The notes beneath the pieces are model-generated. The model was not told where the DNA came from and made no database searches. It saw only the letters and a list, made by a program, of their open reading frames with translations. A DNA stretch of 55,055 nt from a virus. Shown piece after piece: positions 5,742-52,451 of this stretch (the first letter of the stretch is position 1; each line of letters opens with the position of its first letter). Made by a program: the position numbers and the translations under genes. The DNA is taken from UHGV virus genome UHGV-0209657, one strand, 5' to 3'.

Positions 5742-5922
5742 GAAAAAGATAACTGAAGGCACAAAAAGGCACTTACCTTATGCTCTTTAAAAATCCGGTG
5801 TCGCTGCGAAGCGAAAAACAAATATCACGCAACGGCGGGATCTGTTGAGCGGTCAGTCACTGCTATCTAATGCTAATGGGATGCCCGCCCGCGCGTTCAC
5901 TCTAACCATAGGAGAAAATGCG

Positions 5923-24913: not shown

Positions 24914-25042
24914 TTTCTCACCTTGTCATTCTGTGATCTGCGTCACGCTAAATCATACCAAAATGGATTGATCGCGGTTTTTACAATATGTATATTTTAC
25001 TCAAACGGAAGCATAGTTAACAAAATGGCGCGGAGGTGCGTT

Positions 25043-25940: not shown

Positions 25941-25975
25941 ATAAAAATAACCCCGCTTCGCGCGGGGTCGTGTTT
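25941..25975. terminator. hairpin terminator between moron cassette and tail gene M
   Basis: CCCCGC-ttcgc-GCGGGG preceded by A-run. Confidence 0.45.
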
Positions 25976-26171
25976 ATACGCCATCAACCAAAAATAAAAC
26001 CTCCTTCCCTTCCCGGGATCTACACCCAACGTACCCATCACCAACGTCGTGAAGATACCATATATCGCCGTTGTCAGCTTTTACAGTAAGGTCGTTGATC
26101 TCATAGTCGTCAAACAATGTAAAAGCGTAAGTTTTGTCAACTACACAAGTCCCGTACATAACAACCCCCAT
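25974..26171 (-). CDS. hypothetical protein (65 aa) downstream of M
   Basis: ATG overlaps M stop; same strand as tail genes. Confidence 0.35.
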   Translation of the reverse strand: MGVVMYGTCVVDKTYAFTLFDDYEINDLTVKADNGDIWYLHDVGDGYVGCRSREGKEVLFLVDGV

Positions 26172-26524
26172 TAGCCAACAACTTGCTCAAACGTTGCGTT
26201 TAGCGTGTACAAAGGCCCGTCTTTAGTCATGCTCCATTGCCGACAGACAAAAAGCCTTTGCACGTTATCCATTGACGGCGACCAGTAAAAAGCCTCGACC
26301 GCGCCGCGCGCCCTCAAGAATGCTTCCGCCTGGATTGCTACGTTTCCACCATCACCACATCCGGCGCTACTGCCTTTAAACACCAGGGTGTAGCTATCAA
26401 GCAATGGATTGATACCTTTTACCTGTCTTTGCTCATAACCATCGCCCAGCTTAACAACAGATACGTCTGGCTTCCTGGTCACGCTGTAGCTTCTTTGCGG
26501 CGTCCATCTGAACACTTCCGGCAT
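26171..26524 (-). CDS. M: minor tail protein M
   Basis: 117 aa, position between H and L. Confidence 0.75.
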   Translation of the reverse strand: MPEVFRWTPQRSYSVTRKPDVSVVKLGDGYEQRQVKGINPLLDSYTLVFKGSSAGCGDGGNVAIQAEAFLRARGAVEAFYWSPSMDNVQRLFVCRQWSMTKDGPLYTLNATFEQVVG

Positions 26525-26622
26525 AAAACCCCCACAAGTTACATTTTGTATATATCTTTACGCGCTTCTACGCGAAAAATAAGATCATTGTCACAATGAT
26601 TATAGCTAGTTTACAAAATGGA

Positions 26623-26651
26623 TTCACATAGCACGCAACAAGATGTATATA
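26623..26651 (+). promoter_or_regulatory. candidate sigma70 promoter for moron cassette (TTCACA - 17 nt - TATATA)
   Basis: Hexamers with 17-nt spacer about 40 nt upstream of AAGGAGG RBS. Confidence 0.3.
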
Positions 26652-26691
26652 GAAAGCAAGAAGAAAGTAGTACCAACGAAGGAGGCCCAAA

Positions 26692-26847
26692 ATGAAACGC
26701 TATGTAGTAGTAATGCTAAATAACGCATTCGAACAAGTGGAAATAGCAATCGTTAAGGGTTTCGACGACGCATTCAAATACGGTCAATTCATGATGAATG
26801 CGAAAGAAGATGAATACCGGGACTTCTTCCTGAAGGCACTTAACTAA
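26692..26847 (+). CDS. hypothetical protein (51 aa), moron
   Basis: Strong AAGGAGG RBS; opposite strand within tail operon. Confidence 0.35.
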   Translation: MKRYVVVMLNNAFEQVEIAIVKGFDDAFKYGQFMMNAKEDEYRDFFLKALN

Positions 26848-26864
26848 GGATGATGGGGTGAGTT

Positions 26865-27119
26865 ATGAAACTGGTAGCGATTGACAGAAATCTGAAAGCA
26901 CAGAAAAACGCACAGGACCGGATCATCAAGAAAGGTAAGGAATTACTTAAAGCCTTTCTGAGAAAAGAAGTTTACCCCAAAAAGTTACGCGACGGTTACG
27001 GATACAAAATGGATATCAATCTTGATTGGAGGCTGTTTAGCGAAGATTTGAAGGTTTGGTTAATTGTTGAGCACCATGCCTATAACAAGTTATGTGGCGT
27101 GAAAGGCACTCATAAGTGA
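26865..27119 (+). CDS. hypothetical basic protein (84 aa), moron
   Basis: GGGTGAG RBS; followed by terminator. Confidence 0.35.
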   Translation: MKLVAIDRNLKAQKNAQDRIIKKGKELLKAFLRKEVYPKKLRDGYGYKMDINLDWRLFSEDLKVWLIVEHHAYNKLCGVKGTHK

Positions 27120-27174
27120 GTCGAGATATTCGAAAGGGGATATATCGCGCGGAATGGTCGTTTATAAATACGAA

Positions 27175-27212
27175 AAATAACCCCGGCATTGCACCGGGGT
27201 TTAGTTTATTTG
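27175..27212. terminator. bidirectional hairpin terminator
   Basis: CCCCGG-cattgca-CCGGGG flanked by A-rich and T-rich runs. Confidence 0.55.
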
Positions 27213-29548
27213 CGGCGAGGTTGCAACATTCCGCCTGGTCTTTGAGATTCCCTTGTTATCATTTTCATGGCTACACGTTCCATTGTTAATTCAAGTCTGC
27301 GGCTGTCTTCGTCGCTGAATCCGTTCGTGGTCTGAATGCTGATACTGACAGGCATACTAATACCGCCACCGCCGCCAATATCACGGCCCGGAATAACTCT
27401 GCCGTTCTCGCCAGGGATCATATATTGATTGCCGTTAGATGTCTGGAATAGCTCCGGCCTGTTGTGTTCCCCTACGCGGTACATATTACCACCAATGACG
27501 CTACCACCATTAAAGCGACCGCCGCCGAAAATTGACGTAGCCAGCGACATGATCGCAGTGAGCGCCGCCGAACCAGCCGCCGCCCAGCTACCGCCAGTTG
27601 ACGCCGCAGTTGCCGCCGCTGCTGGGGCCGCCGCCGCAGCAATGCTTCCCTGAGCTGCTACCGCGCTTGCTGTTGTACTTGTTTGCGTGGCCTTGCTTTG
27701 TGTCTCCATCATGATCTGATCTGCTATCCAGTTTGCAGCTATGTCTGAGAGTCTGTTACCGATATTGCCGAGTATATTGCTTCCTAAGTTAGCAAAAACA
27801 TCACTCAATGATTGAGTGCCGTTTAACAGGCCAACAAGTGCATTGCTCATACCACCTTTAAGGCCATTAACGCAATCACCGATAAGGCTGTTTGTGTCGC
27901 TTTGCGCCTGCCATTGCTCCCACTTCAGATCGCGGATCTGTTGCTCATAGGCTAACAGTTCCTGTTTCTGTTGCGCTTCCGTCACGCCCAGGTCGATAAG
28001 CATTTGCTTACGGACGGCCCATTCATTTTGAACCTGCTGAATAGGGTCTACTTCGCCCTTTAGCTGATCCATCGGGCTTACTATTTGCTCCCATTTGTCG
28101 CGCAATTCCTCTACCGGAATTTGTGCTAATTCTTCCTTTAGTTCCTTACCTATCCCTTTTTGCGCGGCGCGGTACTCAAGGAGAGTGATTTTACCCTGGG
28201 CGAATGCAGCATCAATGGCCTTGCCGCTCTCTAACGCTTTGCGCATAGCGGCGGCGTCTTTGTTGTACTGGTCAGAAACGCTTATACCTTTATCGCCAAG
28301 ACGATCAGCTTCAGATTTCTTCTCTTTTTTCTGTTTTTTCGGTTTGTCTACTGGCTTGTCGAATCCGGTAATCGCTCCGTCATTGGCGGCATTCTGTTCA
28401 TTTTTCCTTGCTTCTTCTGTAGCCTGGATTGCTGCGGTCAGATCATCCTGTAGTTGCATGACCTTGCCAACGGTCTTACCGTATTTCTTCTCGTAGTTGC
28501 TGTTATATTCGTCGGTTTGCTCTCCTACGACCTCCTTCATCCATTTGTAGGCATCCATTAGTGCCTTGATTGGCGTCACCATTGCGATGATCTTCTCGGC
28601 TACCTCGCCAGCCTTGATTCTGACATCTTCAAACATGTCGATGAATTCGCCACCAGCCGTCTTCAGGGTGTTAAAGCAGGTTTTAGCGAAATCAGCGCCT
28701 TCACCTAAAGCCTTAACACCTTTCGTTACAAGATCGATACCAGCAACAACCGTATCGGATACACCGAAAAGATCATCCAATTGCTCAATAAGTCCCATAA
28801 CCTCGACTTTAAGCTCATTCAGGGCCATGCCGGATGTGCGCGGCAACTGCGCAAACTTCTCGTTTGTTTCCTGCGTAGCCGCCTGGATTGCGTTAACCAT
28901 CCTTTCTGCCGTGATCTTACCGTCCAGCATTTCGGCGCGGAATTGGCCCATTGATAACCCCATCTGGCGTGCCATTGTCTGTACGATGGTCGGGGTGTTT
29001 TCTAACAGGCTGTTGAATTCTTCAGCACGCAACACGCCACCGTCGATAGACTGACGGAATTGACGCATTGAGTTTGACATCTGCTCCGCTGACGCGCCGC
29101 CCAACGCCCCCATTTTCTGAATCGTACCTACCAGGTTAAGCAATTGCCCTTCAGTGGCGGACGTGTTCTTCAGTGAGATAGCTAAGCCTTGCCACAGATC
29201 CCCGGTATCCTTCATGCTTTGGCCTGTTTCTTTTGATATTGCTTTCAGGCCATCAAAAACCCGTCCGGCGGACTCCGCATCGCCCGTAAGCATTTTGATT
29301 TTTACGCGAAGCATTTTTGCTTGCTCCGCCATATCCATAAATTGACGCACGGCCTCCGCAGCAATTAGCAAATGGATAACCCTGGTCAGTGCCTTGATGG
29401 ATGTTTTCAGGGTGTTTACCTGGCGGTCAGCCTGTTTTGCGCCGCGCTCTATACGCCCAAAGGCCTGGTCTGCCTGTCGTTGTGCAACGAGAAGTTGACC
29501 AGTTTTCGCATCAACTTCGTAATAAATTGTACCTACACTGGTAGCCAT
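27206..29548 (-). CDS. H: tail tape measure protein
   Basis: 780 aa, coiled-coil/Ala-Gly-rich, upstream of M-L-K-I-J. Confidence 0.85.
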   Translation of the reverse strand: MATSVGTIYYEVDAKTGQLLVAQRQADQAFGRIERGAKQADRQVNTLKTSIKALTRVIHLLIAAEAVRQFMDMAEQAKMLRVKIKMLTGDAESAGRVFDGLKAISKETGQSMKDTGDLWQGLAISLKNTSATEGQLLNLVGTIQKMGALGGASAEQMSNSMRQFRQSIDGGVLRAEEFNSLLENTPTIVQTMARQMGLSMGQFRAEMLDGKITAERMVNAIQAATQETNEKFAQLPRTSGMALNELKVEVMGLIEQLDDLFGVSDTVVAGIDLVTKGVKALGEGADFAKTCFNTLKTAGGEFIDMFEDVRIKAGEVAEKIIAMVTPIKALMDAYKWMKEVVGEQTDEYNSNYEKKYGKTVGKVMQLQDDLTAAIQATEEARKNEQNAANDGAITGFDKPVDKPKKQKKEKKSEADRLGDKGISVSDQYNKDAAAMRKALESGKAIDAAFAQGKITLLEYRAAQKGIGKELKEELAQIPVEELRDKWEQIVSPMDQLKGEVDPIQQVQNEWAVRKQMLIDLGVTEAQQKQELLAYEQQIRDLKWEQWQAQSDTNSLIGDCVNGLKGGMSNALVGLLNGTQSLSDVFANLGSNILGNIGNRLSDIAANWIADQIMMETQSKATQTSTTASAVAAQGSIAAAAAPAAAATAASTGGSWAAAGSAALTAIMSLATSIFGGGRFNGGSVIGGNMYRVGEHNRPELFQTSNGNQYMIPGENGRVIPGRDIGGGGGISMPVSISIQTTNGFSDEDSRRLELTMERVAMKMITRESQRPGGMLQPRRK

Positions 29549-29602
29549 GATTTAACCTCATGCAAAAATGTGATCTGTGTATCTATTTTATACAAAATGG
29601 CT

Positions 29603-29631
29603 TTACTTCAACGACTCCATTTTGTATAAAG
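29603..29631 (+). promoter_or_regulatory. candidate sigma70 promoter for lipoprotein moron (TTTACT - 17 nt - TATAAA)
   Basis: Hexamers with 17-nt spacer; inverted repeat TACAAAATGG/CCATTTTGTA overlaps; CRP-like half-site at 29569. Confidence 0.4.
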
Positions 29632-29675
29632 AAGCCAAAGGGAATGGTCAGTAAATCAAGTTAGCGTGGTGGGTT

Positions 29676-30335
29676 ATGAAACGGTTAGCAAAAGTGGCAA
29701 TGATTGCGGCGGTATTGGGTCTGGTTGGTTGCAATGAGGATAATGAAAAAGCGCCTATAGTGACCACTCAAGAACAACAAGCATTAGCAGAGAAAAATGC
29801 TAAATGGCTTGCAGAACAACAAGCAAAACAAGCCGCATATGAGGCACAGTTAGCAAAAGAAAAAGCTGGTAAACAGTGGCTTGTGGTCGAAAGAAAAGAT
29901 GATATGCAGGACACAAAAAACGTGTTCCTTTTCGTGAAAGCAGAACATTTCAGCGGAAGTCTTGATGCTTTCCCTACACTGAAAGCACGGGATGAAAACA
30001 AACCTGTATTAACAATCGCTTGCCAGGGTAATAAAACAAAAATGTTCGTAGCATGGTCAAACCATGTAACTGACGCTGGGGACACTACTTATATTAACTA
30101 CCGGATCGGCGATCACAAAGCTGTAGCTACTGAATGGAGTCGGTCAACTAACTATAAAGCTCTTGGATTATGGAACGGCAAAAAAGCCATTCCAATGATT
30201 AAAAAACTGGTTAACGAAAAACAATTTATCATTGAAGTAGTGCCGGAAGCTGGCGACATTGAGAAAGCAGTGTTTAACATTGATGGTCTTTATAACCACA
30301 TCGACAAAGTGAAAAACGCTTGCAACTGGAATTAA
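29676..30335 (+). CDS. lipoprotein (signal peptide plus lipobox LVGC)
   Basis: MKRLAKVAMIAAVLGLVGC N-terminus; opposite strand between tape measure and tail chaperone region. Confidence 0.6.
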   Translation: MKRLAKVAMIAAVLGLVGCNEDNEKAPIVTTQEQQALAEKNAKWLAEQQAKQAAYEAQLAKEKAGKQWLVVERKDDMQDTKNVFLFVKAEHFSGSLDAFPTLKARDENKPVLTIACQGNKTKMFVAWSNHVTDAGDTTYINYRIGDHKAVATEWSRSTNYKALGLWNGKKAIPMIKKLVNEKQFIIEVVPEAGDIEKAVFNIDGLYNHIDKVKNACNWN

Positions 30336-30344
30336 GGGTGAAAC

Positions 30345-30665
30345 ATGAAACGCGATGAATGGATGAGAAAATGGGAACATAAACAAGTAGCATATAATCG
30401 CAAGATGAACCGCGAATTTGACTTCGGTGTCGCAGAGCGTGATTGTGGGTATAAAGGAAATCTAAATGGTGCATATGTTCAACATGTTGGCGATAAACAG
30501 TATTATTACATTGTCAACTTCAACCATGTATTGCACGCAGATCTGGTTGTTATTGATGGGAAAACAAAAATAGTAGCGAATAAACGCATTAATAAGAACG
30601 CAGCAATCAATATATTAACAGTGATTCGCACCCAGATGAATGTGCTTTACAAAAAAATAGCATAA
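30345..30665 (+). CDS. hypothetical protein (106 aa), co-transcribed with lipoprotein
   Basis: 9 nt downstream of lipoprotein gene; followed by terminator. Confidence 0.4.
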   Translation: MKRDEWMRKWEHKQVAYNRKMNREFDFGVAERDCGYKGNLNGAYVQHVGDKQYYYIVNFNHVLHADLVVIDGKTKIVANKRINKNAAINILTVIRTQMNVLYKKIA

Positions 30666-30677
30666 GCGAACTTAACA

Positions 30678-30706
30678 AAAACGCCCGGATCTACCGGGCT
30701 TTTTCT
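30678..30706 (+). terminator. rho-independent terminator after moron pair
   Basis: GCCCGG-atcta-CCGGGC followed by TTTTTCTTG. Confidence 0.55.
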
Positions 30707-31368
30707 TGCTCGCGATTTTTCATTCTTTTTAGTATCTCCATAGCACCATTCATTCCATCGTCATAAGCCTTTTTATCCAGCAATACATTTGGGCGTTTTT
30801 GTTTGTTTCTTGCTTCTGGCGGCGTTTTAGCGCGTACAACGGCCCTATATCCGGTCATTGTCATATTCCATGCTTCTGATTCTGATAACCCCAGGTGAGC
30901 TACGGCAGAATAAACGAATTCCAGCACGTTAAAAGTCGGCTTATATTCCCCTTCCCGGATCTCTCCGGCGTCTTCTTCTGGCCCGTCACCGATTAAACCG
31001 TGGTACATGCAATGTTGTGCCAGCGTGATAACGTCACTGGTCGGCATCAGTCCGGGTTTTAGTCGTAACTTGCCGGAAGAAGTTAACCTACATTCACCCA
31101 ATAACGGGGCTATTTCGTCGTCTGAGCAACATTTCAGGATGCGCATTGACGTTTGTACTATCTCACCATAACACCGCGCCATAATGCGATTGCGGAGGCC
31201 TGGATCTGTAGGCAATCGTGATGGGTATTTGCTGCCGTGGATAAGTGCGAAATATTCGACAAGCTCACTATCGTTGCCGATTTTAGCCATCGCAGCAAAG
31301 CAAGGATTAAACTCATAGCGCTTACCGTTCACCACAGCCGCAAATTGTCCTGTACGAACATGGATCAT
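30691..31368 (-). CDS. putative tail assembly chaperone (positional)
   Basis: Between major tail protein and tape measure; ATG at 31366-31368 with AAGGTGA RBS. Confidence 0.35.
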   Translation of the reverse strand: MIHVRTGQFAAVVNGKRYEFNPCFAAMAKIGNDSELVEYFALIHGSKYPSRLPTDPGLRNRIMARCYGEIVQTSMRILKCCSDDEIAPLLGECRLTSSGKLRLKPGLMPTSDVITLAQHCMYHGLIGDGPEEDAGEIREGEYKPTFNVLEFVYSAVAHLGLSESEAWNMTMTGYRAVVRAKTPPEARNKQKRPNVLLDKKAYDDGMNGAMEILKRMKNREQEKAR

Positions 31369-31423
31369 AGTATTCACCTTAAAAGAAAAGGGGCCAAATG
31401 GCCCCGATTGTTAATATTGGCTG

Positions 31424-31900
31424 TTATGCTGGCGGAACGTCGCCTACCGTTACCTTGCCAGCGCTTTCGCACTCAATGGACCAGGTGGAAACATCATCGT
31501 GTGGATCTTCTTCTTTAAAGGAAGTGCAAAGGAATGGGCCTTCAGTTACGTCTACAGGAGAAACGATCTTCAGCCATACATAAGGTTGTGATCCGGTGGT
31601 TTCACCTGGCGTAATTACGTGGCGTTTCAGCGCTTTCTGATTATGGATTTCTTCAGTGCGGGACACACCGTCGCCGGAGAAAGAAACGGATTTGTAAGTA
31701 ACCATTGATTCTTTCGTGTAATCGGCTGATTTATCGGCGGTGGCGTCAGCGGTTTCCCATTCAACGGAAAGTGTTTTACCACGCATCATGCCTAACGCTT
31801 TGTACGCTCCAGTTTCCGGCTTCGCATTTGGACAAGCGATAGCGAAGAATACAGCAACGTCACGGCCTGTAAACGTGCCTTTTTCGCAAGTCTGAGACAT
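31424..31900 (-). CDS. major tail tube protein
   Basis: 158 aa, position and beta-rich composition. Confidence 0.55.
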   Translation of the reverse strand: MSQTCEKGTFTGRDVAVFFAIACPNAKPETGAYKALGMMRGKTLSVEWETADATADKSADYTKESMVTYKSVSFSGDGVSRTEEIHNQKALKRHVITPGETTGSQPYVWLKIVSPVDVTEGPFLCTSFKEEDPHDDVSTWSIECESAGKVTVGDVPPA

Positions 31901-31913
31901 GTTAATTTACCTC

Positions 31914-32300
31914 TTATCTTGATATGATGGTTTGAAAAGCTACGGTAAAAATAAAGCGCCCTTCTCTTGTCTGCATTGCAGGGATAGCGCCAACTGGCTT
32001 CATGTGTGTAATTTTATCAGTTTTATATTCTGTTAACATACTTTGACGGATGGCATCGGCAAGGTCTTCCACTTCACTGATATTTGTATCATTACGCGCT
32101 GAAATAACCAGAATGCGGAAATAATCACGGGTTATTGCTTCTTCACCAGCCGCGCCGCCGTTTTGCTGGATTACGATGTATCTGTCATTATTCGAATTGC
32201 TCCGCTCATTCCAGAAACGGGCCTGCAAAATATAGCCCTCATCGTATCCGTGGGATTGAATCCAATCCCTTATTTCGTCGTATACTTCGCTGCGCTTCAT
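31914..32300 (-). CDS. tail completion / terminator protein (positional)
   Basis: 128 aa ORF directly upstream of major tail gene. Confidence 0.35.
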   Translation of the reverse strand: MKRSEVYDEIRDWIQSHGYDEGYILQARFWNERSNSNNDRYIVIQQNGGAAGEEAITRDYFRILVISARNDTNISEVEDLADAIRQSMLTEYKTDKITHMKPVGAIPAMQTREGRFIFTVAFQTIISR

Positions 32301-32761
32301 GTTTTGTAACCTTCTACAATCTCTTTATAAATATCGTCGGCGTTGTTTGGATCTTCGAATGCCTTGCGCAAGAATTCCGGCTCCGCGTTTGGGTCCCAAT
32401 ATTTACCTTTGCCAGTACCGCCGCCGAACTCAATTACCTGTTTCGGCCCGAAATCTGAAAGGTTATTTGTTTTCCCGAAATGTTCACGCGGCTGGCCTTT
32501 TAATGTGCCTGGCATATTGTGCACCCATTCAGCGTAACGGGCTGTATATCCCAGCCGTAACTGCATACCCTCCGCCGTGTTACCTATATATTGAAATTGG
32601 CTGTTAATTAAAAAACCCGTATCAACTGGTGTCATGTTTGCCGCAAAGCCACCAGCCAGCATACCGACGCGCCATAAAACTTCGTGCGTCTTTTTATCGG
32701 TGATTTCCTTTAGCTCCTGCTTTAATCTCTCACGGACGCGTTTAACTCCCCTGATAGGCAT
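32297..32761 (-). CDS. HK97 gp10-like head-tail joining protein
   Basis: Size, position and recalled family pattern. Confidence 0.45.
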   Translation of the reverse strand: MPIRGVKRVRERLKQELKEITDKKTHEVLWRVGMLAGGFAANMTPVDTGFLINSQFQYIGNTAEGMQLRLGYTARYAEWVHNMPGTLKGQPREHFGKTNNLSDFGPKQVIEFGGGTGKGKYWDPNAEPEFLRKAFEDPNNADDIYKEIVEGYKT

Positions 32762-32763
32762 GA

Positions 32764-33153
32764 TTAACCCCCTGTCACGATCTTATAATCCGGCGTGTCG
32801 TTAAACATGCTCATATCCCATTCAACGATCCCGGTTATAACGTTGGCCCCAGCCGCAAGCGGGTCGGCAATAGCAGTAGTGTCACCAGTGGCAAGCATCC
32901 ATCCTTTTTCCGGGCGCTGTACTGGCTGCATCTTGTGAAGCAGTTCGGTATATACGGTTATTGTGTTGCTCACCTCGTTGCCGTTTGCGTCTGTTGCAGT
33001 TCCGTCAGTACGCTCCCATGCACAATCTACCAGGTATGGCGTACCGTATACATCGGAGTTTGTCCAGTCGTCACGCGTTACGGGGTAAATGGTGGCTAAC
33101 GCCTTGTAAGTAAATCTCGATAGCTTACTCATAGCCGTAACTCCATTTAACAA
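32764..33153 (-). CDS. head-tail adaptor protein (positional)
   Basis: ORF in connector module. Confidence 0.35.
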   Translation of the reverse strand: MLNGVTAMSKLSRFTYKALATIYPVTRDDWTNSDVYGTPYLVDCAWERTDGTATDANGNEVSNTITVYTELLHKMQPVQRPEKGWMLATGDTTAIADPLAAGANVITGIVEWDMSMFNDTPDYKIVTGG

Positions 33154-33316
33154 TTTTCGGATGAGTTTTCGCCACGCGCGGGCAAAGAATTACCCATAAG
33201 CCAGCATCATTGAGGTAGGCCGCCACCTGGCGTCCGCTATCCGTTTTAACCCACACGCGGGTAAATGGTTTCGGCAATACTGGATTTGGTAATGTCAGGT
33301 CGTTCCACATTGTCAC
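33125..33316 (-). CDS. hypothetical protein (63 aa)
   Basis: Small ORF in connector module. Confidence 0.3.
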   Translation of the reverse strand: MTMWNDLTLPNPVLPKPFTRVWVKTDSGRQVAAYLNDAGLWVILCPRVAKTHPKIVKWSYGYE

Positions 33317-33699
33317 ATCCTCCTGCTCTTACCAATCCACAGCCCGGCGTGCGCGGTGTTTTCTGGATCTGCTGGAATCAGTTCGGCTGTACAGTGATGT
33401 TTATCAATGGAGTAAAGCAACGAATAGGCCGCCTTCCATCGTTTGTTGAAATCGACATAGCGGTATGACTGACTCGCACCGTTCGGCCCAGTCTGCGAGG
33501 AAACGTATTTATCAGCCTGGCTTAGTCCTAACAGGCCAATCAGATAAAGCTGAATCAATGTTGCAGTGGAGGCCGGATAGTTGGCATCAAGGCATTCATT
33601 AACGCTATTTGCCTGCTCCACCAGCAAAGATAAGATAATGTCTGGCAGGTCAATACCCTGGCTTTCAAGATATTCCCGCGCCTGTTCTGTAGTGACCAT
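33313..33699 (-). CDS. head-tail connector protein (gp6-like)
   Basis: ATG at 33697-33699; first gene after capsid terminator. Confidence 0.4.
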   Translation of the reverse strand: MVTTEQAREYLESQGIDLPDIILSLLVEQANSVNECLDANYPASTATLIQLYLIGLLGLSQADKYVSSQTGPNGASQSYRYVDFNKRWKAAYSLLYSIDKHHCTAELIPADPENTAHAGLWIGKSRRM

Positions 33700-33711
33700 T
33701 TTGTTTGCTCC

Positions 33712-33746
33712 ACATACAAAAAAAATCCCCGGCATCGCGCCGGGGA
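33712..33746 (-). terminator. terminator after major capsid gene
   Basis: Perfect 8-bp stem TCCCCGGC/GCCGGGGA followed on minus strand by 9-T run. Confidence 0.65.
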
Positions 33747-33764
33747 GTTACAGGAAATACGAAA

Positions 33765-34817
33765 TTATTTGTGACCGTAAACAACACCGGAACGGCCCAG
33801 CATGTCGCAGGTGATTTGTAAGCCTTCGGCAGACATGATTTTGAAGTTGTAGTTATCGGTAGGCATGGTGCGCGGCAGAGGCACTACGCCAGTAGTCATA
33901 CCAACCAGCGGGGTAATGACGTTGCGGCGGCGTTGATAGGCAATGAACTCGTTGCCTTTCAGTGCATAGGTCTGACGGATTTCTTTAACCGGAATGAACG
34001 GTTTAACGATATTCAGAACACTGCCTACGACAGTCCCGTTTGCAATGTGCGGCGCTGCCAGGTTAGCCATAATTTCAGGTGACACCCACATGAGATCATA
34101 CTGGTCAACGCGGTTGTTGCGGGCCATAACACCGAATGCACCAGTGGTGAAGAATTTGATGAGAGCATCGAATCCGTCAGTGGTGAGATCTTCGGAGGTC
34201 ATGACTAGTTTCTGGGTATTGCGGTGATTTTTAATACCCTGGCCAGGTTTACCGTTGACGTTGATTTTTGCGTTACCGTTAAGGTAATAATCAACGCGGG
34301 CCTTGTTGAATTTTTGCAGTTTCAGGCGCTGGCTATCCAGTGCAAGGTCAATACCAACAGTTTTCAGACCTTCGGAATGACGCCAGCTGACACCGTAACC
34401 CGCTGCGAACATCGGGATCGGGTCGCCATCGCTGCCATATTCAGTGTGATCGAAGCCATGCGGGGCTTGACCATCGATACTAACGACAACTTCATCGTTA
34501 ATATCACCGGATACGCTGTACATTTTCTCGGTTTTACCGATTGGCAATACGGTTTGCACAGCCATCAAATCGTTTACGATTTCAATACCAGTCTCTTCGG
34601 TGCTCATTTCGATAATCTGGTTATCGACAGCTTTCCAGAACTCCTGATCGAAGCCGCCAACGGCATTACATGCCAGGATGTCAGCGGTCATGTTTGCCAT
34701 ATTTGCGGCAATAAGAGCGCCGTCCTGATCATTGAACATGTTGCGCTGCGCCCAAAGGTGATCCCACTGGGCACGAATGCGGCTGTTGGTAGCAAGGTTG
34801 TGTTTATTAAACAACAT
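33765..34817 (-). CDS. major capsid protein
   Basis: 350 aa, GAGGTGA RBS, followed by strong terminator, preceded by decoration and protease genes. Confidence 0.8.
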   Translation of the reverse strand: MLFNKHNLATNSRIRAQWDHLWAQRNMFNDQDGALIAANMANMTADILACNAVGGFDQEFWKAVDNQIIEMSTEETGIEIVNDLMAVQTVLPIGKTEKMYSVSGDINDEVVVSIDGQAPHGFDHTEYGSDGDPIPMFAAGYGVSWRHSEGLKTVGIDLALDSQRLKLQKFNKARVDYYLNGNAKINVNGKPGQGIKNHRNTQKLVMTSEDLTTDGFDALIKFFTTGAFGVMARNNRVDQYDLMWVSPEIMANLAAPHIANGTVVGSVLNIVKPFIPVKEIRQTYALKGNEFIAYQRRRNVITPLVGMTTGVVPLPRTMPTDNYNFKIMSAEGLQITCDMLGRSGVVYGHK

Positions 34818-34836
34818 AGTTTTTCACCTCTTATTA

Positions 34837-35238
34837 TTATGCAACGCGGACACGTACAAAATCAGCCGCTTCAAGGGTTACAGTTTCCTGGCAGAAAGCG
34901 AAAACAGGTTCATCAGATGTAACCAATTTAAAGCCACCTTCACCAATGGTGATGGCAGCGTCTTTGGTGTAAGCACCTTCAGGAAGCAGAATCGCAAATT
35001 CACGTCCTTCTTCTGCGTAGTCAGCAACCACGGAATGACCAACCGGGATCGCATCTTCAATGCCTAAACCTTCATGGTATGCCGGGTTAACAACATAAAT
35101 ACGTCCTGTGGTATCAGTTGCGGCAGCGAATTTACCAGACGCCATTTTTACCGGAGTACCCGGCTTAAGTGCTGCGGCAGATACTGCTGTTTCAGTAACG
35201 GATTTGCCGTCAATATTTACACGACGAAAACGGGCCAT
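34837..35238 (-). CDS. head decoration-like protein
   Basis: 133 aa ORF immediately upstream of capsid gene. Confidence 0.45.
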   Translation of the reverse strand: MARFRRVNIDGKSVTETAVSAAALKPGTPVKMASGKFAAATDTTGRIYVVNPAYHEGLGIEDAIPVGHSVVADYAEEGREFAILLPEGAYTKDAAITIGEGGFKLVTSDEPVFAFCQETVTLEAADFVRVRVA

Positions 35239-35248
35239 AATTCACCTC

Positions 35249-36535
35249 TTATGCGAAATAGTTGTTAATGTCAGGGGTGGCAGGTTTATTTCCACCAGCG
35301 GCTGAGTTTGCTGCCATTGGTGCTGCTTTACCCAGGGATTTAAACATTGCGTCTAACGCTTCACCACTTAATGCGTTAGCAACAATTTCGCCGTGTACTT
35401 TTGCTACTGCGGCGCGTTTTTCTGCTTCTTCTTTATTTGCGTTTGCTGCGATCTCTTCTTTAATCGCTTTCTGATTGGTCTGTAATTCTTCAACGCTTGC
35501 CTGTACTGGTTTTAATGCCTCTGCTACTGCATTAGCGATATTGGCGGATAAGCCTTCGTTAATTTCTTTTACCAGTTCGGCGCGTTCTTCTTTGGTCAAA
35601 GGCATGGGATCGTCCTCCGATTTATTGGCCTTAATTTTTTCATTCAGGGAGAAAAGATTAGAAAGGTGTTCAGCGAACTGCGTAAACCAGGATTTACTTT
35701 CCTCGTTGGTTGCAAGCTCGCCATTATTGAGAATAATTTTATCAGCCTGTTTTTCATATGCGCAAACTTGAGCACTTTCTGTATTAGTGGCGATCGTCAC
35801 TTCTTTATCAGTGAAGTCCACCACATACACGTAATCGGCATCAGGAAATAATTCACGCGCCGCGTCGGTTAATTGTTTCTCAAGCGTACGGTAACTGTTT
35901 TCTTTCATTGCCACCGCCATTAACGGTTTCGCCTGGTCAGTATTAACCATCAACCCTACACCCTGTTCAGGTGATGCGGCTGGCGGCTCATGCAGCAAAA
36001 TAGCGTCATGGTCGATCGACATAATTTTTACTACATGGTCAGCGCCCTGGGCTTTCATCTCTTCAGTAGCTGGCATACGCTGACGATATACAGCGACGGA
36101 CGACCAGATAGGATCTTTGCTTTCTCCTTTCTCCAGTGCTTCCAGTCGGGTTAATAATTCACGCCCCTGTTCTGAATGGCTGGCTGTTTCAATATCCACC
36201 CATTTTTCCACATAAACACGATTGCCGCGTAATTCAACGTTTCTGTTCCACGCTCCACAAAACCCGGTGTTCAATCCTTCCGGGCTAAATGCGGAAACAA
36301 ATTTACCGTCAACGGTAGGATGACCCAGCGGGGCGAGTGTCCCCTCCAGTGACTGGTAATTAGCGATAATTTCAGCTTCCGGGTAATATTCACGATTCAT
36401 AACGATATTGAATGGCAGCGTATATGATGGCACAACAATGTGCTCGCGTCCGTTATAAGTTTCCCGGCGTATGGTATTAGCGGTTAATTTGGTATTAACC
36501 TGAATCAGTTCTTTACTCACGGTTTTTACTCCCAA
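35249..36535 (-). CDS. prohead protease / scaffold-like protein
   Basis: 428 aa with coiled-coil Ala/Glu/Lys-rich C-terminal half; between head morphogenesis and decoration genes. Confidence 0.45.
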   Translation of the reverse strand: MGVKTVSKELIQVNTKLTANTIRRETYNGREHIVVPSYTLPFNIVMNREYYPEAEIIANYQSLEGTLAPLGHPTVDGKFVSAFSPEGLNTGFCGAWNRNVELRGNRVYVEKWVDIETASHSEQGRELLTRLEALEKGESKDPIWSSVAVYRQRMPATEEMKAQGADHVVKIMSIDHDAILLHEPPAASPEQGVGLMVNTDQAKPLMAVAMKENSYRTLEKQLTDAARELFPDADYVYVVDFTDKEVTIATNTESAQVCAYEKQADKIILNNGELATNEESKSWFTQFAEHLSNLFSLNEKIKANKSEDDPMPLTKEERAELVKEINEGLSANIANAVAEALKPVQASVEELQTNQKAIKEEIAANANKEEAEKRAAVAKVHGEIVANALSGEALDAMFKSLGKAAPMAANSAAGGNKPATPDINNYFA

Positions 36536-37467
36536 TCTTCGCCATATTTAGCGTGCGCAACTTTATAGTTTTCTTGCGCCCGATCTAATATTCGTTCGTT
36601 TAATATGTTACCGTCTTCGTCAACTAATACGGTAATCGTGCTACATTTGCAGTTAATTGAATTAGGGGATCTACTCCACCATTCGCGCTGCTCATCTATG
36701 GTGTATGTTTTACCGTGCCGCTGCGCGTGCGATAGCCTGGTAGTCGGTGATAATGCCGAAATGTGCATTTGCATAGTGCGCAGATTAAATTCTTCTGTCG
36801 CCGCTTCTGCCTCATCCATACGCGCTGTGCGTAACGCTGTGCATATTTCAGTTCGAGCAATACGTTTACACCTGTATAGCGGTAATTGCGTCTCCTGATT
36901 CAATGTGCGCGCTATTTCCAGTGGGTTTAAACCACGGGCCATGCCTTCAGTTAATCGCCGGGCCATATCCTTTTTGATCTGTGCGGTCAGCCCGCGCATT
37001 TCCTCAAATACACGGGTACGGACCAGAGCAAGGCGTGTTCGGTAAGTTGTACTGGATAACACGGCAGATACATCAGGGTAGGCGCTTGAGTACGTGACAG
37101 ACTGGTTAGCAAGGTTGGCATGTTCCTGTGCCGTGCCGCGCTGATAGGCCACCTTCACGTAATTCTGCCAGAACCAGAAGTTTTCCTGGTCTGTTAGCTC
37201 GAATATCTCATCAATCATGTCGCTGGCATCCTCCAGCATGTCGTGAAATTCATCCATGTAAATCTGAAAGGTGTATTTCTTATTAACAGCCAGGCTATAT
37301 TGTATCCTGTCCAATATGGCGATATATGGATCGGCTACTTTTTTCAGGCAGGATTTGAAACGCTTAATAGCGCCAGACCTCAACCTCCCTGTCATGGTCG
37401 GGTCTTCGGTGTTAGATGGCATTATCGCGGCTGGAGGTATTCGCCTGATTATTTTCTTCACCTTCAT
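36526..37467 (-). CDS. minor head morphogenesis protein (Mu F-like)
   Basis: 313 aa directly after portal; recalled F-like family pattern. Confidence 0.55.
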   Translation of the reverse strand: MKVKKIIRRIPPAAIMPSNTEDPTMTGRLRSGAIKRFKSCLKKVADPYIAILDRIQYSLAVNKKYTFQIYMDEFHDMLEDASDMIDEIFELTDQENFWFWQNYVKVAYQRGTAQEHANLANQSVTYSSAYPDVSAVLSSTTYRTRLALVRTRVFEEMRGLTAQIKKDMARRLTEGMARGLNPLEIARTLNQETQLPLYRCKRIARTEICTALRTARMDEAEAATEEFNLRTMQMHISALSPTTRLSHAQRHGKTYTIDEQREWWSRSPNSINCKCSTITVLVDEDGNILNERILDRAQENYKVAHAKYGEDWE

Positions 37468-38785
37468 TGTCGTTTTCCTCGTCGTCCAGTTCTACTTCCT
37501 GCGTTGGCCCTTCATACCCGGCAGCCTCGCGGATCTCGTCACCGTCGAATACTTGTTCACCTGTGGCGAGACATGCCTGATTGATTTGCGCCATTTTGTA
37601 TGCCGCGTCGAGTAGCTCGGCTTTCGTCATGGCGTTAAGGTCGTCCCACAGTACCGACACGTCGACTGGCATACTGATAAGGCGGAGATCTGCCATCTTG
37701 CGGAATAGTTCCTCAAGCTCGCCTCCTATTTCCTCCCGGCGGGTCATACAGCGGTTATTGAAGTAGCGGAGGTCTTCGGTTGATGCACGCTCACCCTGCT
37801 GATTCCCAACCAGGATACGCGTTGGAATGTCGATACCAGCGGCGGCGGTTTGCAGGTTGACGTCATAGGTAGCTGATGGATCCGCCACGGCAGTAACCAG
37901 CGGGCTAACGGTTGCTCCCTGTAATGCCATCATCACATCATTACCTTTATTTATATCCTCTGCCGCTTCATTGAATTTTTCGCGTAGCTCTGCAACGTCG
38001 CAACCGTATGTTGCAGCCAGGGAACGAAAATCAATCTCTTTGTCGAATGAGATAGCCAGTTGACGCGCTGCGTTTTTCAGAAAGGATTCACCGCTACCGC
38101 CTTCCACTTTCTCCAGCGATACAAAAGCGTTATAGGACGGCTCAAGGAAAGCGATGGCATCATCAGAATAATCACCGAAGATAAATATGCGATCTGGATG
38201 TATCTTTCTTGCTATGGTCTTACTGTTAATGCGCTCCTTGTATTCCCACCATGTCGGCAGGCCATAGCTTTCACTTTCCGGATCTTCTTCGAAGTCCTTC
38301 GGTGTAAGAGCACCAGCCCATACAGGGGTAAATTTGGCAATGCCTACACCTTTCGTCACTGGCTGATCCCACGGCTGGTTATCCCTGACGTGAATTAACA
38401 GGCCAGCATAACGACCAATGAGGCGGCGGCGATCGCATTCAGCTATGACGCGCCAGAAACGATTATCAAATCGTTTTTTGATTTCTCTTTCCCACGGCGT
38501 TTCCTTTTTTGCTTTCTCGTCTTCCGTACCTTCGATCAGCGTTGGCCTGGTGCGCCAGCACGTAGTGATGATCTTCTCAATAGCACCGTGAGCGATACCA
38601 CCGCGACGATACAGTTTGTATAAATCGGCATAGGTGATTTCTTCTTTGAATCCGTATTCACTCCACGCAGCATCACGTTTTGCATCAATACCCATTGAGA
38701 ATGGGTTAGCGGCTGCATAGCGGGCAAAGGCCGCCTGTCGTTGTGACAAGGCAGCATTAACCGCCAGTTCTACATTAGATGGCAT
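37412..38785 (-). CDS. portal protein
   Basis: About 457 aa after terminase large subunit; ATG at 38783-38785 with AGGAG RBS; acidic C-terminus. Confidence 0.7.
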   Translation of the reverse strand: MPSNVELAVNAALSQRQAAFARYAAANPFSMGIDAKRDAAWSEYGFKEEITYADLYKLYRRGGIAHGAIEKIITTCWRTRPTLIEGTEDEKAKKETPWEREIKKRFDNRFWRVIAECDRRRLIGRYAGLLIHVRDNQPWDQPVTKGVGIAKFTPVWAGALTPKDFEEDPESESYGLPTWWEYKERINSKTIARKIHPDRIFIFGDYSDDAIAFLEPSYNAFVSLEKVEGGSGESFLKNAARQLAISFDKEIDFRSLAATYGCDVAELREKFNEAAEDINKGNDVMMALQGATVSPLVTAVADPSATYDVNLQTAAAGIDIPTRILVGNQQGERASTEDLRYFNNRCMTRREEIGGELEELFRKMADLRLISMPVDVSVLWDDLNAMTKAELLDAAYKMAQINQACLATGEQVFDGDEIREAAGYEGPTQEVELDDEENDNEGEENNQANTSSRDNAI

Positions 38786-38933
38786 AATGTTTACTCCTGA
38801 ATACATGTTTACGCGTTGCTACGCGAAAAATAGAAAAACTTGCGGGGGATTGTGGGACAGATTTTATGTAGCCAATTGAGAATTATTCTTGTTCATCTTC
38901 GAAAATTTTTCGAAGTTGATAATAATCAATAAC

Positions 38934-40412
38934 TTAAAATCCGCGCAGGCGTTTAGGTAACATAAGACCCATCGCCTGTGGTTGGCTTAATTCAGTGATC
39001 CCCCATACCATCGCATCCATACGGTCAGGGGATTTTTTAGCGGTAGCTGGCACATATTCCATCATTTGATTTTCCAGCGTGTACAGGCTGCCTGTGTGGG
39101 CCACCCTTCCTTGTGCATACAGTGCTGATATTGGCTCGGCGCGGGCGAATTTACCTTTGCTTGCGTGCACCTTAACAATGCGGCCTTTGAATCCGGCATT
39201 ACGCAACGTGGCCTCTGCCATTTCCCCGCCCTGGTTGGTTTCGATAACTATCGCGTCAGCTTCATGGATGTCATATGCTTTCATTGATGCGTGCGCCCAG
39301 TCGTTAGGCGACATGCGGCCCGAATAGTCACCATCAACAGAATACTGAGCATTCTTACCGCCACCATAAGCGGAACACGCCACAATCCCGGTTTCGTCAG
39401 ATTCATCAGATGATGTTGTCGCCGGGTCAATAGCTATCACGGTGCGGATCTTGTCCTGCGTTATCTGCATCCGGTGCGCGGCGGTTATCATCGCTTCAGT
39501 CCATAACGCACCCTCTTCGTCGAATTTACGCGGGCGCTGCATGTACTGGGCTTCAAATGACCGTCTGTGTGCTTTCAGTCCAGCTTCATGGATGTCATTG
39601 TGCTTTTTAGGCCATAGCCAGCCATCTGGCAGGTTGTGAGGAATAGGGATAGCGAACTCGTTTTCAGGGTACAGATCCCAGTAGCCCAGGCTATTGTCTA
39701 TCTTCACTGGCAGGTTAAGGTGATGCCACTTCTCGCCACTGCCACCGCGTAGCAGGTAGCCGGACAAATCATCATAGTGGATGCGCTGCATGATGACGAT
39801 AACAGGCGTTGTTTGCACTGCCAGACGTGAAGCAAGCGTATCGTTATAGTTGGTGTTTACCTGCTTTCTCACCACGTCGGAGTAAGCGTCAGCGGGTTTT
39901 AATGGGTCGTCTATGATTAACGCGCCGTTAAATCCTGATTCCATGTACCCCGCACGGAACCCAGTCACCTGACCAAGTGATGACGTCGCATACACGCCGC
40001 CACCGTATTCGGTCCACCACATCGATTTTGAGTTTGCATCGTTGCGGATCTTCATGGGCCACATTGCCTGATAGTCAGGCGTACAGATCATGTTTCTTAC
40101 AGTAGAGGAATTGAGTAATGCCAGGTTGTTGGAATAGGAAACGTGAAGGAAGCGTGTGCGGGGATTTATTGCGAGGGACCGCGCCATCATGTTGATGGTT
40201 GCGATCATGGTTTTACCGTACCCTGGAGGAATGTTAATGATGAGTCGGGTTATCTCACCATTAATAACGCGTTGCAGTGCATCACGGATGGCTAAATGAT
40301 GGCCTGAGATTAACATCTTCGTTCCGTTCGCTTGCTTGTAGAAATAGCGATTGAAAAACAGGCCGTCGTTTTCACATTTGGACTGAATAACTCGTTCTTT
40401 GATTGTCAACAT
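38934..40412 (-). CDS. terL: terminase large subunit
   Basis: Walker-like ATPase N-domain and nuclease C-domain layout; ATG at 40410-40412. Confidence 0.9.
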   Translation of the reverse strand: MLTIKERVIQSKCENDGLFFNRYFYKQANGTKMLISGHHLAIRDALQRVINGEITRLIINIPPGYGKTMIATINMMARSLAINPRTRFLHVSYSNNLALLNSSTVRNMICTPDYQAMWPMKIRNDANSKSMWWTEYGGGVYATSSLGQVTGFRAGYMESGFNGALIIDDPLKPADAYSDVVRKQVNTNYNDTLASRLAVQTTPVIVIMQRIHYDDLSGYLLRGGSGEKWHHLNLPVKIDNSLGYWDLYPENEFAIPIPHNLPDGWLWPKKHNDIHEAGLKAHRRSFEAQYMQRPRKFDEEGALWTEAMITAAHRMQITQDKIRTVIAIDPATTSSDESDETGIVACSAYGGGKNAQYSVDGDYSGRMSPNDWAHASMKAYDIHEADAIVIETNQGGEMAEATLRNAGFKGRIVKVHASKGKFARAEPISALYAQGRVAHTGSLYTLENQMMEYVPATAKKSPDRMDAMVWGITELSQPQAMGLMLPKRLRGF

Positions 40413-40414
40413 AA

Positions 40415-40900
40415 TCACACCTCGTCTTCTACTTCCTGGACGATGCGGGCGATCTCTTCTTTTGTGACTTCTACCTGTACGGGCGCTTCCTCCCTGTTGC
40501 CGACGATCTCCTGTGTGACGCGTTCACCGTATTTACGCGGTTGCAGTTTTGCCAGTAACCATTTACGCGTTTCAATCATTAGTTGGTGGCGGCGTAATTC
40601 ATCTTTATCAATGTTCTCCGCCGCATCAGCTATATCGATGATCTCATCAGCTAATACCTCAAAACCTATTTCCTTCGCTCTCACATACATGTCCGAAAAT
40701 TCCGGCACATCACGGAACCACTTAAGGATTGTTGAACGTGTTGGCATACCTGGCATCTTCGAAATTTTATTAACGCTATGACCGTCCGCCACCAGTTCAC
40801 AGATCTCTAATGCCTTTTCTTCGGTATAACCATGCGGACGGCCCACCTTTCTAGCTGCTGGCTTTTTATCGTCAGCATTTGCCTTTTTAGTGCGGGCCAT
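40415..40900 (-). CDS. terS: terminase small subunit
   Basis: 161 aa with HTH-like segment, directly upstream of terL. Confidence 0.7.
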   Translation of the reverse strand: MARTKKANADDKKPAARKVGRPHGYTEEKALEICELVADGHSVNKISKMPGMPTRSTILKWFRDVPEFSDMYVRAKEIGFEVLADEIIDIADAAENIDKDELRRHQLMIETRKWLLAKLQPRKYGERVTQEIVGNREEAPVQVEVTKEEIARIVQEVEDEV

Positions 40901-43788: not shown

Positions 43789-43804
43789 AGATTTTCCTCC
43801 AACA

Positions 43805-43830
43805 AAGCAAAAACCCGGCGCGGGGCCGGG
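43805..43830 (-). terminator. hairpin terminator upstream of holin (tR'-like)
   Basis: CCCGGC-gcggg-GCCGGG then T-run on minus strand, about 25 nt before holin RBS. Confidence 0.45.
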
Positions 43831-44067
43831 TAATTACAATTTCGCATTGTTAGGAAATATTTTAATCTGTTTGTTTACGCTCTACAAATACGGCTTACGC
43901 AGTTTTGTATATCAGGCCATTATCAAACAACATTTGCATATGCCACCGATCCATGTCGCTTGATTCCCAATGTGGATCGTCATCAGGTCTTATCATCACC
44001 TTATTACCTTTAAGTAAATAGACGATGTTAAATACCTTATGCAAATAGATGCCGTCTTCGATCTCGT

Positions 44068-45960: not shown

Positions 45961-46022
45961 TATATAACAAAATGGCACTACCGAAACAATGCCATTTCGT
46001 AAACATTGTGATACAGATCACA
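45961..46022 (-). promoter_or_regulatory. candidate CRP-dependent class I promoter inside island
   Basis: Perfect TGTGA-N6-TCACA at 46007-46022; -35 TTGTTT (45984-45989) and -10 TATATA (45961-45966) on minus strand; CRP centre about 61 nt from inferred start. Confidence 0.35.
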
Positions 46023-52292: not shown

Positions 52293-52368
52293 AATGCTCT
52301 CTCCTTTTCAGGTGATTTCTACGCATTTCAGCGCTGCCGGATTTTTAAAGAGCATTTCGTTTGCTTGA

Positions 52369-52429
52369 AGTATACAAAATGGATACACCAGAACAAGGTG
52401 AATAGCGCCATTATGTGATCCACATCACG
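52369..52429 (-). promoter_or_regulatory. candidate promoter with CRP-like site upstream of nin genes
   Basis: -10 TATACT (52369-52374), -35 TTGTTC (52391-52396), TGTGA-N6-TCACg at 52414-52429, within nested inverted repeats. Confidence 0.35.
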
Positions 52430-52451
52430 CAATGGCGCCATTTTGTAAATT

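Follow-up and report, generated by a model that had tools for sequence, protein, structure and literature searches.

The question raised by the viral genome UHGV-0209657 (55,055 nucleotides [nt]; this whole stretch is referred to below as the window) is what a short, hairpin-forming repeat does at two points of its late operon, one ahead of tail gene M and the other ahead of the portal gene. A preliminary description of the sequence had offered an internal late promoter, an antisense promoter, or an element for RNA processing or translational control. We found that the element is real, family-wide, constrained in sequence, fixed in orientation and mobile between genetic elements, and that most changes in its stem keep the pairing of the sense strand. 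The reading that we tentatively favor is a portable sense-strand stem-loop that would act in cis, post-transcriptionally, as a processing/stability boundary of the late mRNA; we infer both RNA as the active form and the role in processing or stability from sequence data. A role as a translation enhancer or insulator would account for the same data equally well.

The preliminary description was right about the repeat itself. The 25-nt sequence TTTACGCGYTKCTACGCGAAAAATA occurs exactly at 26557-26581 and at 38808-38832 of the plus strand, the window is otherwise empty at ≤3 mismatches, and no such match arose in 100 dinucleotide-preserving shuffles, so that none is expected by chance. The late genes have the minus strand as their sense strand, and on it the element is a 27-nt imperfect palindrome with the consensus A-UUUUU-CGCG-U[AGNN]R-CGCG-(U)-AAA-S-AU. 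Similarity between the two copies reaches 43 nt on this strand (26538-26580 and 38789-38831), i.e., the 27-nt core plus ~16 bases on its 3' side, which extends the 35 nt originally assigned to what is indeed a conserved repeat. Likewise, the interval first given for the M copy (26548-26584) covers it, whereas that for the portal copy (38811-38847) lies ~10 nt too far right, the equivalent being 38799-38835. The two copies and the genes around them are as follows:

26580 down to 26538, minus strand: 43-nt copy at the M site, in sense orientation, ATTTTTCGCGTAGAAGCGCGTAAAGATATATACAAAATGTAAC
38831 down to 38789, minus strand: 43-nt copy at the portal site, in sense orientation, ATTTTTCGCGTAGCAACGCGTAAACATGTATTCAGGAGTAAAC
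26554..26580, minus strand: 27-nt hairpin core at the M site, ATTTTT-CGCG-TAGAAG-CGCG-T-AAAGAT
26538..26553, minus strand: 3' extension at the M site, common to the portal copy, the sense ATATATACAAAATGTAAC region; overlaps one TACAAAATG box
38805..38831, minus strand: 27-nt hairpin core at the portal site, ATTTTT-CGCG-TAGCAA-CGCG-T-AAACAT
38789..38804, minus strand: 3' extension at the portal site, sense GTATTCAGGAGTAAAC; includes the portal Shine-Dalgarno (SD) sequence AGGAG at 38794-38798
26171..26524, minus strand: gene M (Phage_min_tail, PF05939, E 1e-27), first cistron after the M copy; SD GGGGG at 26530-26534
37412..38785, minus strand: portal gene (DUF1073/PF06381), first cistron after the portal copy; its start is likely ATG 38785, not 38806
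38934..40418, minus strand: large terminase gene terL (Terminase_6C), the cistron upstream of the portal copy

As had been noted, both copies stand upstream of minus-strand structural genes: the M copy ends 33 nt before the M ATG and the portal copy 21 nt before the portal ATG, the latter preceded at 8 nt by AGGAG. In the 3' extension, columns A37, T38, T40, A41, T42, C44, A45, A48, A52, A53 and C54, which our search pattern left unconstrained, are invariant or nearly so at both sites. A covariance model built from 30 unique family copies and run with filters off over the whole window reported two sites only, the M copy at 68.3 bits and the portal copy at 63.3 bits; the next-best score was 14.6 bits (E 1.6). 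No extra or degenerate copy was found in the window, including near the early and late promoters and int.

The window belongs to the mEp021-like (mEpimmI) phages, and both regions match only seven sequenced mEp021-group coliphages, at 81-92% identity. This group comprises Nus-dependent, non-lambdoid temperate phages (PMC11893012), and the element goes unmentioned in the same paper. An exact-pattern scan of IMG/VR returned 85 stretches, essentially two per ~53-kb contig and always at the M and portal positions. To avoid ascertainment bias, we fetched loci by means of the M and portal proteins instead of the motif, and found the element kept in 31/31 family M loci and 50/50 family portal loci, as well as in both copies in mEp021; related phages, in which the preliminary description proposed to look for it, do carry it. 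It was missing from 43 portal-relative loci (50-62% identity) and ~49 M-relative loci (67-71% identity) of Citrobacter, Enterobacter, Serratia and others, in which the M or portal gene is coupled to the preceding gene or lies behind a true terminator. Consistently, the covariance model gave no match in 95 distant-relative loci, its matches being confined to two copies each in the window and in mEp021 and a single copy in a bacterial island; deeper covariation was sought in distant relatives, from which the element is absent. A metagenome scan with a flank-only pattern recovered ~43 true copies and no new stem variants. By a sensitive search, the phage was detected in 31-35 of 5,426 complete E. 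coli genomes; the phage-bearing genomes, 31-48 in number, do not belong to standard transcriptome strains. The motif was found in no phage-context paper, and the element is undescribed; its kind, short conserved stem-loop cassettes at phage gene boundaries, is familiar.

The paired CGCG blocks are able to form a hairpin, as anticipated. The M core is predicted to form a hairpin of 11-12 bp that has a single bulged U and a U[AGNN]R apex (-8.5 kcal/mol; -10.6 kcal/mol, z -2.6, in its 46-nt context), and the portal core into a five-bp CGCGU/ACGCG stem with an AGCA loop and an A-U extension (-6.1 kcal/mol). Among the element columns of the unbiased alignments, 9/27 at the M site and 5/27 at the portal site are variable, against 83/147 and 19/51 columns of the flanking non-coding DNA. 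Within the element, the final three positions of the loop are free to vary, a 1-nt loop deletion (loci L114/L115) and a 1-nt shortening of the T-run occur, and the loop types GAAG and GCAA have been exchanged between the M and portal sites in some genomes (L109, L171).

Constraint on the stem differs between the strands. On the sense strand 95.1% of alignment cells pair, compared with ~84% (hand count) on the antisense strand. Six stem pairs were changed on one side only and stayed standard pairs, five of the six via G-U. The substitution types affecting Watson-Crick stem pairs were A>G (three), C>U (two) and U>C (one), the A>G changes falling in the outermost A-U pair (M site) and in the second A-U pair (M and portal sites). 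Five of these six types keep the pair on the sense strand only and one does the opposite, with the pair-preserving fraction expected from the flank spectrum being 0.28 (binomial P 0.008); adding a pair-breaking G>A from the island copy raises P to 0.02. The flanks show no excess of A>G or C>T, about half of their changes being transversions. This asymmetry is suggestive of a single-stranded sense-strand form, most simply mRNA, and of no more than suggestive strength because it comprises ~6-7 one-sided events in a shallow family (≥84% identity).

A third copy, 36 nt long and identical to the portal version at 34/36 positions, is present in 13 E. coli genomes, none carrying the phage. In strain KSC9 (NZ_CP018323.1, 144.5-154.7 kb), it is part of a 10.6-kb island at the CPZ-55 locus, between eutB and eutA, in the order intZ, two open reading frames (ORFs), a gene for a 63-aa HTH_17 (AlpA-like) protein, the element, and then an operon. 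The element points to the downstream genes, and its hairpin ends 29 nt before the next SD. Island products include an Sf6-type small terminase (38% identity to the window TerS), a protein of 726 aa with a C-terminus that shares 63% identity with that of the phage tape measure protein, and an Xis-like protein (51% identity to the phage homologue), and a CI-like helix-turn-helix (HTH) gene is also present. Genes for capsid, portal and large terminase are missing from the island, from which we infer a satellite-like or defective relative, and we regard it as a candidate satellite of mEpimmI-type phages; no paper was found that links CPZ-55 to satellites. More than 100 other E. coli islands carry an alpA that is 88-95% identical followed by an unrelated spacer devoid of the element, and the element is likewise lacking beside the orf830 homologue in the O157 PV15-279 island. 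The 36-50 nt island copy at a mosaic junction, set beside these unrelated spacers, indicates that the element travels as a module. The AlpA-like HTH protein was considered as its binder and ruled out, since near-identical alpA islands lack the element.

In all three contexts (terL-portal, tape measure/moron-M, and island alpA-orf830), the element thus occupies an untranslated gap and is oriented in sense toward the downstream gene, with hairpin-to-SD distances of 16, 27 and 29 nt, the first at the portal site and the last in the island.

Variation around the portal copy was also observed. A 70-nt insertion (38855-38930) between the terL stop and the element is shared by the window and about one-quarter of its relatives and absent in mEp021; it holds the palindrome CTTCGAAAAATTTTCGAAG and a weak plus-strand promoter-like TCGAAA-16-AATAAT. 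The first ~10 portal codons differ between mEp021 (1780-1807) and the window (38765-38806) with most relatives, and in mEp021 no ATG occurs at the SD-spaced position, the annotated start being an upstream ATG without an SD. The differing portal N-terminus places a mosaic junction immediately 3' of the element.

Such settings would suit a recombination linker or relic that marks or mediates the swapping of gene blocks without itself contributing to expression. All three contexts are indeed mosaic junctions (the portal N-terminus and 70-nt indel, the variable morons before M, and both sides of the island copy), and the loop swaps between the two copies point the same way. However, direct repeats at a distance of 12 kb would invite lethal deletions and thus be selected against, non-coding DNA next to the core is far less conserved than the core, substitutions appear to be filtered for pairing, and orientation and start-codon distance are maintained. 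We consider this explanation very unlikely.

How the copies are transcribed bears on the promoter hypotheses. The phage encodes a lambda-type Q (49961-50680, PF03589), ~6 kb upstream of the holin late unit, with ~25 small ORFs without a Pfam match in between. The late unit before the holin gene (43800-43910, minus strand) consists of TTGTAG-17-TAAAAT, a downstream -10-like AACAAT and a strong terminator, CCCGGCCCCGCGCCGGGTTTTT, and is conserved in the family; it is a probable late promoter in which AACAAT would serve as a lambda-like sigma-dependent pause element. With a lambda-type Q and a family-conserved late unit, the late genes probably form one long antiterminated transcript; internal promoters would then not be needed, and the portal copy would lie within a terL-portal co-transcript. 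The late region is interrupted by oppositely oriented morons with flanking bidirectional terminators, one of which islands late transcripts must cross in antisense before they reach the M copy. The features of this gap are:

26692..27201, plus strand: reversed moron between the tape measure gene and M, with a 51-aa ORF, a ParE-like toxin gene (26865-27119; PF24732, E 9e-12) and a terminator (27179-27201)
26599..26604, minus strand: sense-strand TATAAT, located 18 nt ahead of the M core; invariant in 25 unique sequences, in which neighboring positions vary

The terminator at 27179-27201 is perfect and bidirectional; other terminators lie at 25949-25969 and 33726-33746. The moron ORF pair is a putative toxin-antitoxin system, and mEp021 has a different, larger moron set at this position.

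Sigma-70 promoters were called as hexamers 16-18 bp apart with ≥9/12 matches and a -10 carrying A at position 2 and T at position 6; by these criteria, the scans reported no site overlapping either copy on either strand. The first of the earlier proposals, an internal late promoter, would lie on the gene strand and start transcripts for portal and M; whether or not an activator is assumed, it is the least probable explanation among those considered. The terminator after the tape measure gene means that M could need a promoter of its own, and the conserved TATAAT lies ahead of the M copy; it may be the -10 of an internal promoter, the element then lying in the 5' untranslated region (UTR). That hexamer is nevertheless outside the shared element, has no matching -35, no scan call and no portal-site counterpart. 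In or after the element there is no -35/-10 pair, and the candidate hexamers TATNCA and TAAASA vary and lack T at position 6. At the portal site, the 16 nt between hairpin and SD are too few to accommodate a -10, start site and leader, and the start site would fall on or after the SD.

The second proposal, a plus-strand antisense sigma-70 promoter that would serve the moron at the M site and run antisense to terL or alpA elsewhere, fares little better and is also very unlikely. The hexamers TTTACG-17-TAAGAT and TTTACG-17-TAGAAA exist as described, with a 17-bp spacer in the window; a moron lies downstream on the plus strand at the M site, and the island copy, TTTATG-17-TAGAAT, has a good -10. 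The window hexamers are nonetheless weak (8/12, below the scan threshold), and conservation runs opposite to expectation: the supposed spacer with its CGCG..CGCG is invariant, whereas the supposed -10 is the least conserved part, reading TGAGAT, TGAGAA, TGATAA or CGAGAT in most M-site relatives, with G at position 2. No gene follows at the portal site, and the sense-strand-specific substitutions would be left unexplained. As for the moron, a better-conserved promoter candidate, TTCACA-17-TATATA, lies 65 nt further on at 26623-26651; it was picked out by eye and was not among the scan calls, and relatives keep both of its hexamer blocks but differ in the spacer.

Several further identities were examined and rejected. 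An intrinsic terminator does not fit, as a T-run precedes the stem and an A-run follows it on both strands, and no terminator was called at the copies. Nor are the copies nut sites: no boxA (GCTCTTTAA-like) lies within 40 nt, and the loops AGAA and AGCA are not GNRA-like. Genuine nut-like sites occur at 5781-5830 (plus strand) and 52300-52353 (minus strand), each with boxA TGCTCTTTAAAAA followed by a hairpin (CGCU-GCGA-AGCG in one site and CGCU-GAAA-UGCG in the other), and a weaker third boxA-like sequence, GCACTTTAAAAA, lies at ~4765-4776 (minus strand); three nut sites have been reported for mEp021, in agreement with this set (PMC11893012). A Q-binding or qut site was considered on account of a resemblance to the late promoter (~43870-43905, minus strand), which is found only in the window and mEp021, whose late-promoter spacer has GTAG-A-GCGTAAACA; mEp554, mEp044, mEp010 and MagusPhagus have CGAAAAC or ATAAAAA there. 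These four relatives keep the element without the spacer likeness, so the element is not a Q-loading copy; GCGTAAA is moreover common in the window (18 matches). A 14-nt exact complement at 37977-37990 in the portal gene was tried as a long-range pairing partner and dismissed as chance, because its synonymous sites vary freely in relatives. Rfam gave no match at gathering threshold in the whole window, and permissive scans of both regions reached at best 14.6 bits against gathering scores of ≥46. To our knowledge, none of the host sites for CpxR (GTAAA-N5-GTAAA), OmpR, PhoP, Fur, CRP or dif/Xer accounts for the invariant CGCG blocks.

Strand-specific constraint could also reflect a signal to the elongating RNA polymerase, in which the hairpin, formed in nascent RNA or in the non-template strand, together with the conserved 11-13 nt TAAASATRTAT would pause polymerase or load a factor, sustaining processivity or transcription-translation coupling where the head and tail-tip blocks begin. 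The conserved block that directly follows the hairpin matches an RNA-DNA hybrid in length and holds a -10-like AAAGAT or AAACAT, the late promoter region has the similar AACAAT downstream of its -10, and the long untranslated stretch before the M copy would invite Rho. Yet the likeness to the late-promoter spacer is not kept in element-bearing relatives, boxA and a GNRA loop are missing, unlike in the phage's own nut sites, and the island copy (AAACAA) loses the T of the -10-like hexamer. Small-ORF Pfam scans detected no gene for a NusG/RfaH-like protein or a second antiterminator, and a Q-modified polymerase should need no help. We regard such a signal as unlikely.

More weight attaches to a duplex-DNA operator of a dimeric or tandem phage binder, recognizing either the inverted repeat TTTACGCG-N6-CGCGAAAA or direct CGCGTAR repeats with a 10-bp period. 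Such a binder would coordinate head and tail-tip expression, and the island would have acquired its own copy as a means of sensing its helper phage. The 7-mers CGCGTAG and CGCGTAA are near-invariant while the three bases between them vary freely, the CGCG blocks lie one helical turn apart, an invariant TAG is easier to explain by base-specific contacts, and the element is common to the phage family and to an island with terS, tape-measure C-terminus and Xis homologues. On the other hand, recognition of a duplex does not predict the strand-asymmetric stem substitutions (5/6, P ~0.008), a 9-bp spacing variant persists (L114/L115), and the portal copy has no room for an activated promoter. None of ~30 small ORFs examined has a Pfam DNA-binding domain, the island AlpA-like protein is excluded, and no additional copies lie near the early or late promoters or int. 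We therefore hold the operator to be a possible explanation, at lower confidence than the stem-loop.

The sense-strand stem-loop must itself be weighed against a number of observations that speak against it. The hairpin is weak (-6 to -8.5 kcal/mol), the fold of the portal copy is no better than that of shuffled sequence (z -0.7), the antisense folds are as stable as the sense folds (-5.0 kcal/mol for M and -6.8 kcal/mol for portal), and in the island copy, where a G>A disrupts the outer C-G pair, the fold is weaker still (-4.4 kcal/mol). Double compensatory changes number 0 in the family alignments, and the one-sided events are few, as stated above. The first three loop bases, UAG, are near-invariant, so that a plain protective hairpin is an insufficient explanation and a specific binding partner would be a better one; conservation also fits a 10-bp direct repeat, CGCGTAG-nnn-CGCGTAA, a pattern often seen with tandem DNA-binding proteins. 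Finally, the element is missing from two other gaps that come after reversed morons, those ahead of the tape measure gene and of gene L.

Taken together, the constraint on the sense strand, the fixed orientation, the untranslated gaps, the AU-rich flanks, the dispensability of internal promoters and the portability favor a cis-acting RNA module, and among the three original proposals RNA processing or translational control is the one that fits best, as judged by sense orientation, untranslated gap and sense-only pairing; the preliminary interpretation is in part supported. The near-invariant UAG, the 10-bp direct repeat and the parallel with helper/satellite pairs keep a specific RNA- or duplex-DNA-binding partner in play.

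As a cis-acting module, the element would work as follows. The portal gene opens the head gene block and M opens the tail-tip block, and both cistrons have to initiate translation independently. The active form would be the late mRNA, or possibly the non-template DNA strand, with a CGCG/CGCG GC clamp, an A-U extension, a U[AGNN]R cap and AU-rich single-stranded flanks. A host endonuclease would cut the long Q-antiterminated transcript within an AU-rich flank; the end so created would be protected by the hairpin, which would also keep upstream RNA away from the downstream ribosome-binding site. At the M site, this upstream RNA would be a 0.7-2.6 kb antisense moron transcript. Expression of the downstream block would thereby be uncoupled from the RNA ahead.

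Intercistronic stem-loops that set mRNA stability or processing are well known, for example the REP in malE-malF, papB-papA processing and the 5' stabilizer hairpins of ompA. The element resembles them in being a sense hairpin in an intercistronic untranslated gap with AU-rich flanks and no U-tract tail, and resembles REP-type stem-loops in that host factors would suffice and in its portability. It differs from REP in being far shorter and weaker, in its conserved AGNN-type loop and 3' tail, in occurring two or three times and not genome-wide, and in that its processing is presumed. T4-type phages reportedly carry PeSL "mobile regulatory cassettes" (said to have been described by Arbiol et al. 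in 2010), which combine a stem-loop with an early promoter at gene boundaries. Like these, the element is a short stem-loop cassette upstream of genes at mosaic junctions, its sequence has been swapped between copies, and it has moved to another genetic element; unlike these, which have a recognizable sigma-70 early promoter and dozens of copies, it lies in a late operon and has no detectable promoter. The SAS/ESAS (start-associated and extended start-associated sequences) of cluster K mycobacteriophages, for which a role in translation has been proposed, likewise are family-specific inverted repeats at a short, variable distance before the start codons of some genes; SAS, however, abuts the start codon, whereas the element ends 16-29 nt before the SD, and sequence, host and copy number differ.

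With the P2 late-promoter activator (Ogr/Delta) sites shared with satellite P4, the element has in common that the same cis element stands in a phage late region and in a small integrative element, which in P4, and presumably in the island, depends on related phages. The P2/P4 sites are dyads at ~-55 of real promoters with a known activator, whereas the element has neither portal promoter geometry nor a known binder: it is present in both phage and island, the latter a presumed satellite, and its SD distances of 16, 27 and 29 nt come with no -10. Similarity to the nut boxB bound by the phage N-like Gp17 (PMC11893012) extends to a 4-5-bp GC stem, a U-A closure and a 4-nt purine-rich loop. The boxB sequence is CGCU-GNRA-AGCG and the element GCGU-AGNN-RCGC, with a loop starting with A and no boxA, and the element lies in the late operon, whereas nut sites lie downstream of early promoters.

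Combining these parallels, the element could be the RNA or non-template-strand recognition site of a putative phage late factor that would co-activate the head and tail-tip blocks, the island having captured the 36-nt signal before its terS operon so that an mEpimmI helper activates it. We consider this rather improbable; if true, it would be a post-transcriptional counterpart of P2/P4 late-promoter cross-talk.

Two side observations concern other features of the window and its relatives. A 10-nt box, CCATTTTGTA/TACAAAATGG, has 21 matches at ≤1 mismatch versus 6.1 expected, a count unreached in 100 shuffles. Its sites include:

4848-4857, 5603-5612, 5691-5700, 9960-9969 and 25019-25028: 10-nt box
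26541-26550, 26612-26621, 27003-27012, 29591-29600 and 29617-29626: 10-nt box
37591-37600, 45966-46001, 52373-52382 and 52438-52447: 10-nt box

The box occurs in inverted pairs within regulatory gaps (before the tape measure gene, around the M element and before gene L), and pairs also adjoin the probable nutR2 and the CI-like repressor gene. A -10-like hexamer (TATAAT, TATAAA/TAAAAT, TATACT or TATGAT) often comes right after it on the late strand. The box probably serves a phage regulator as its operator or promoter motif and would mark internal promoters behind each island of reversed morons. In addition, many DUF1073 (PF06381) portal homologues in Enterobacter and Citrobacter prophages bear the NCBI name "anti-CBASS protein Acb1 family protein" despite their portal position, which looks like a naming artefact.

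If the element is merely a stabilizing hairpin, it would be an ordinary feature, mainly of use for annotation. If it is functional, it would represent a compact, transferable 5'-UTR/intercistronic module of ~30-45 nt placed at exactly two points of a lambda-like late operon, and expression of late blocks under Q antitermination would be further adjusted post-transcriptionally. The most interesting part is the island copy, which links the newly described, gut-prevalent mEpimmI phages to a possible satellite.

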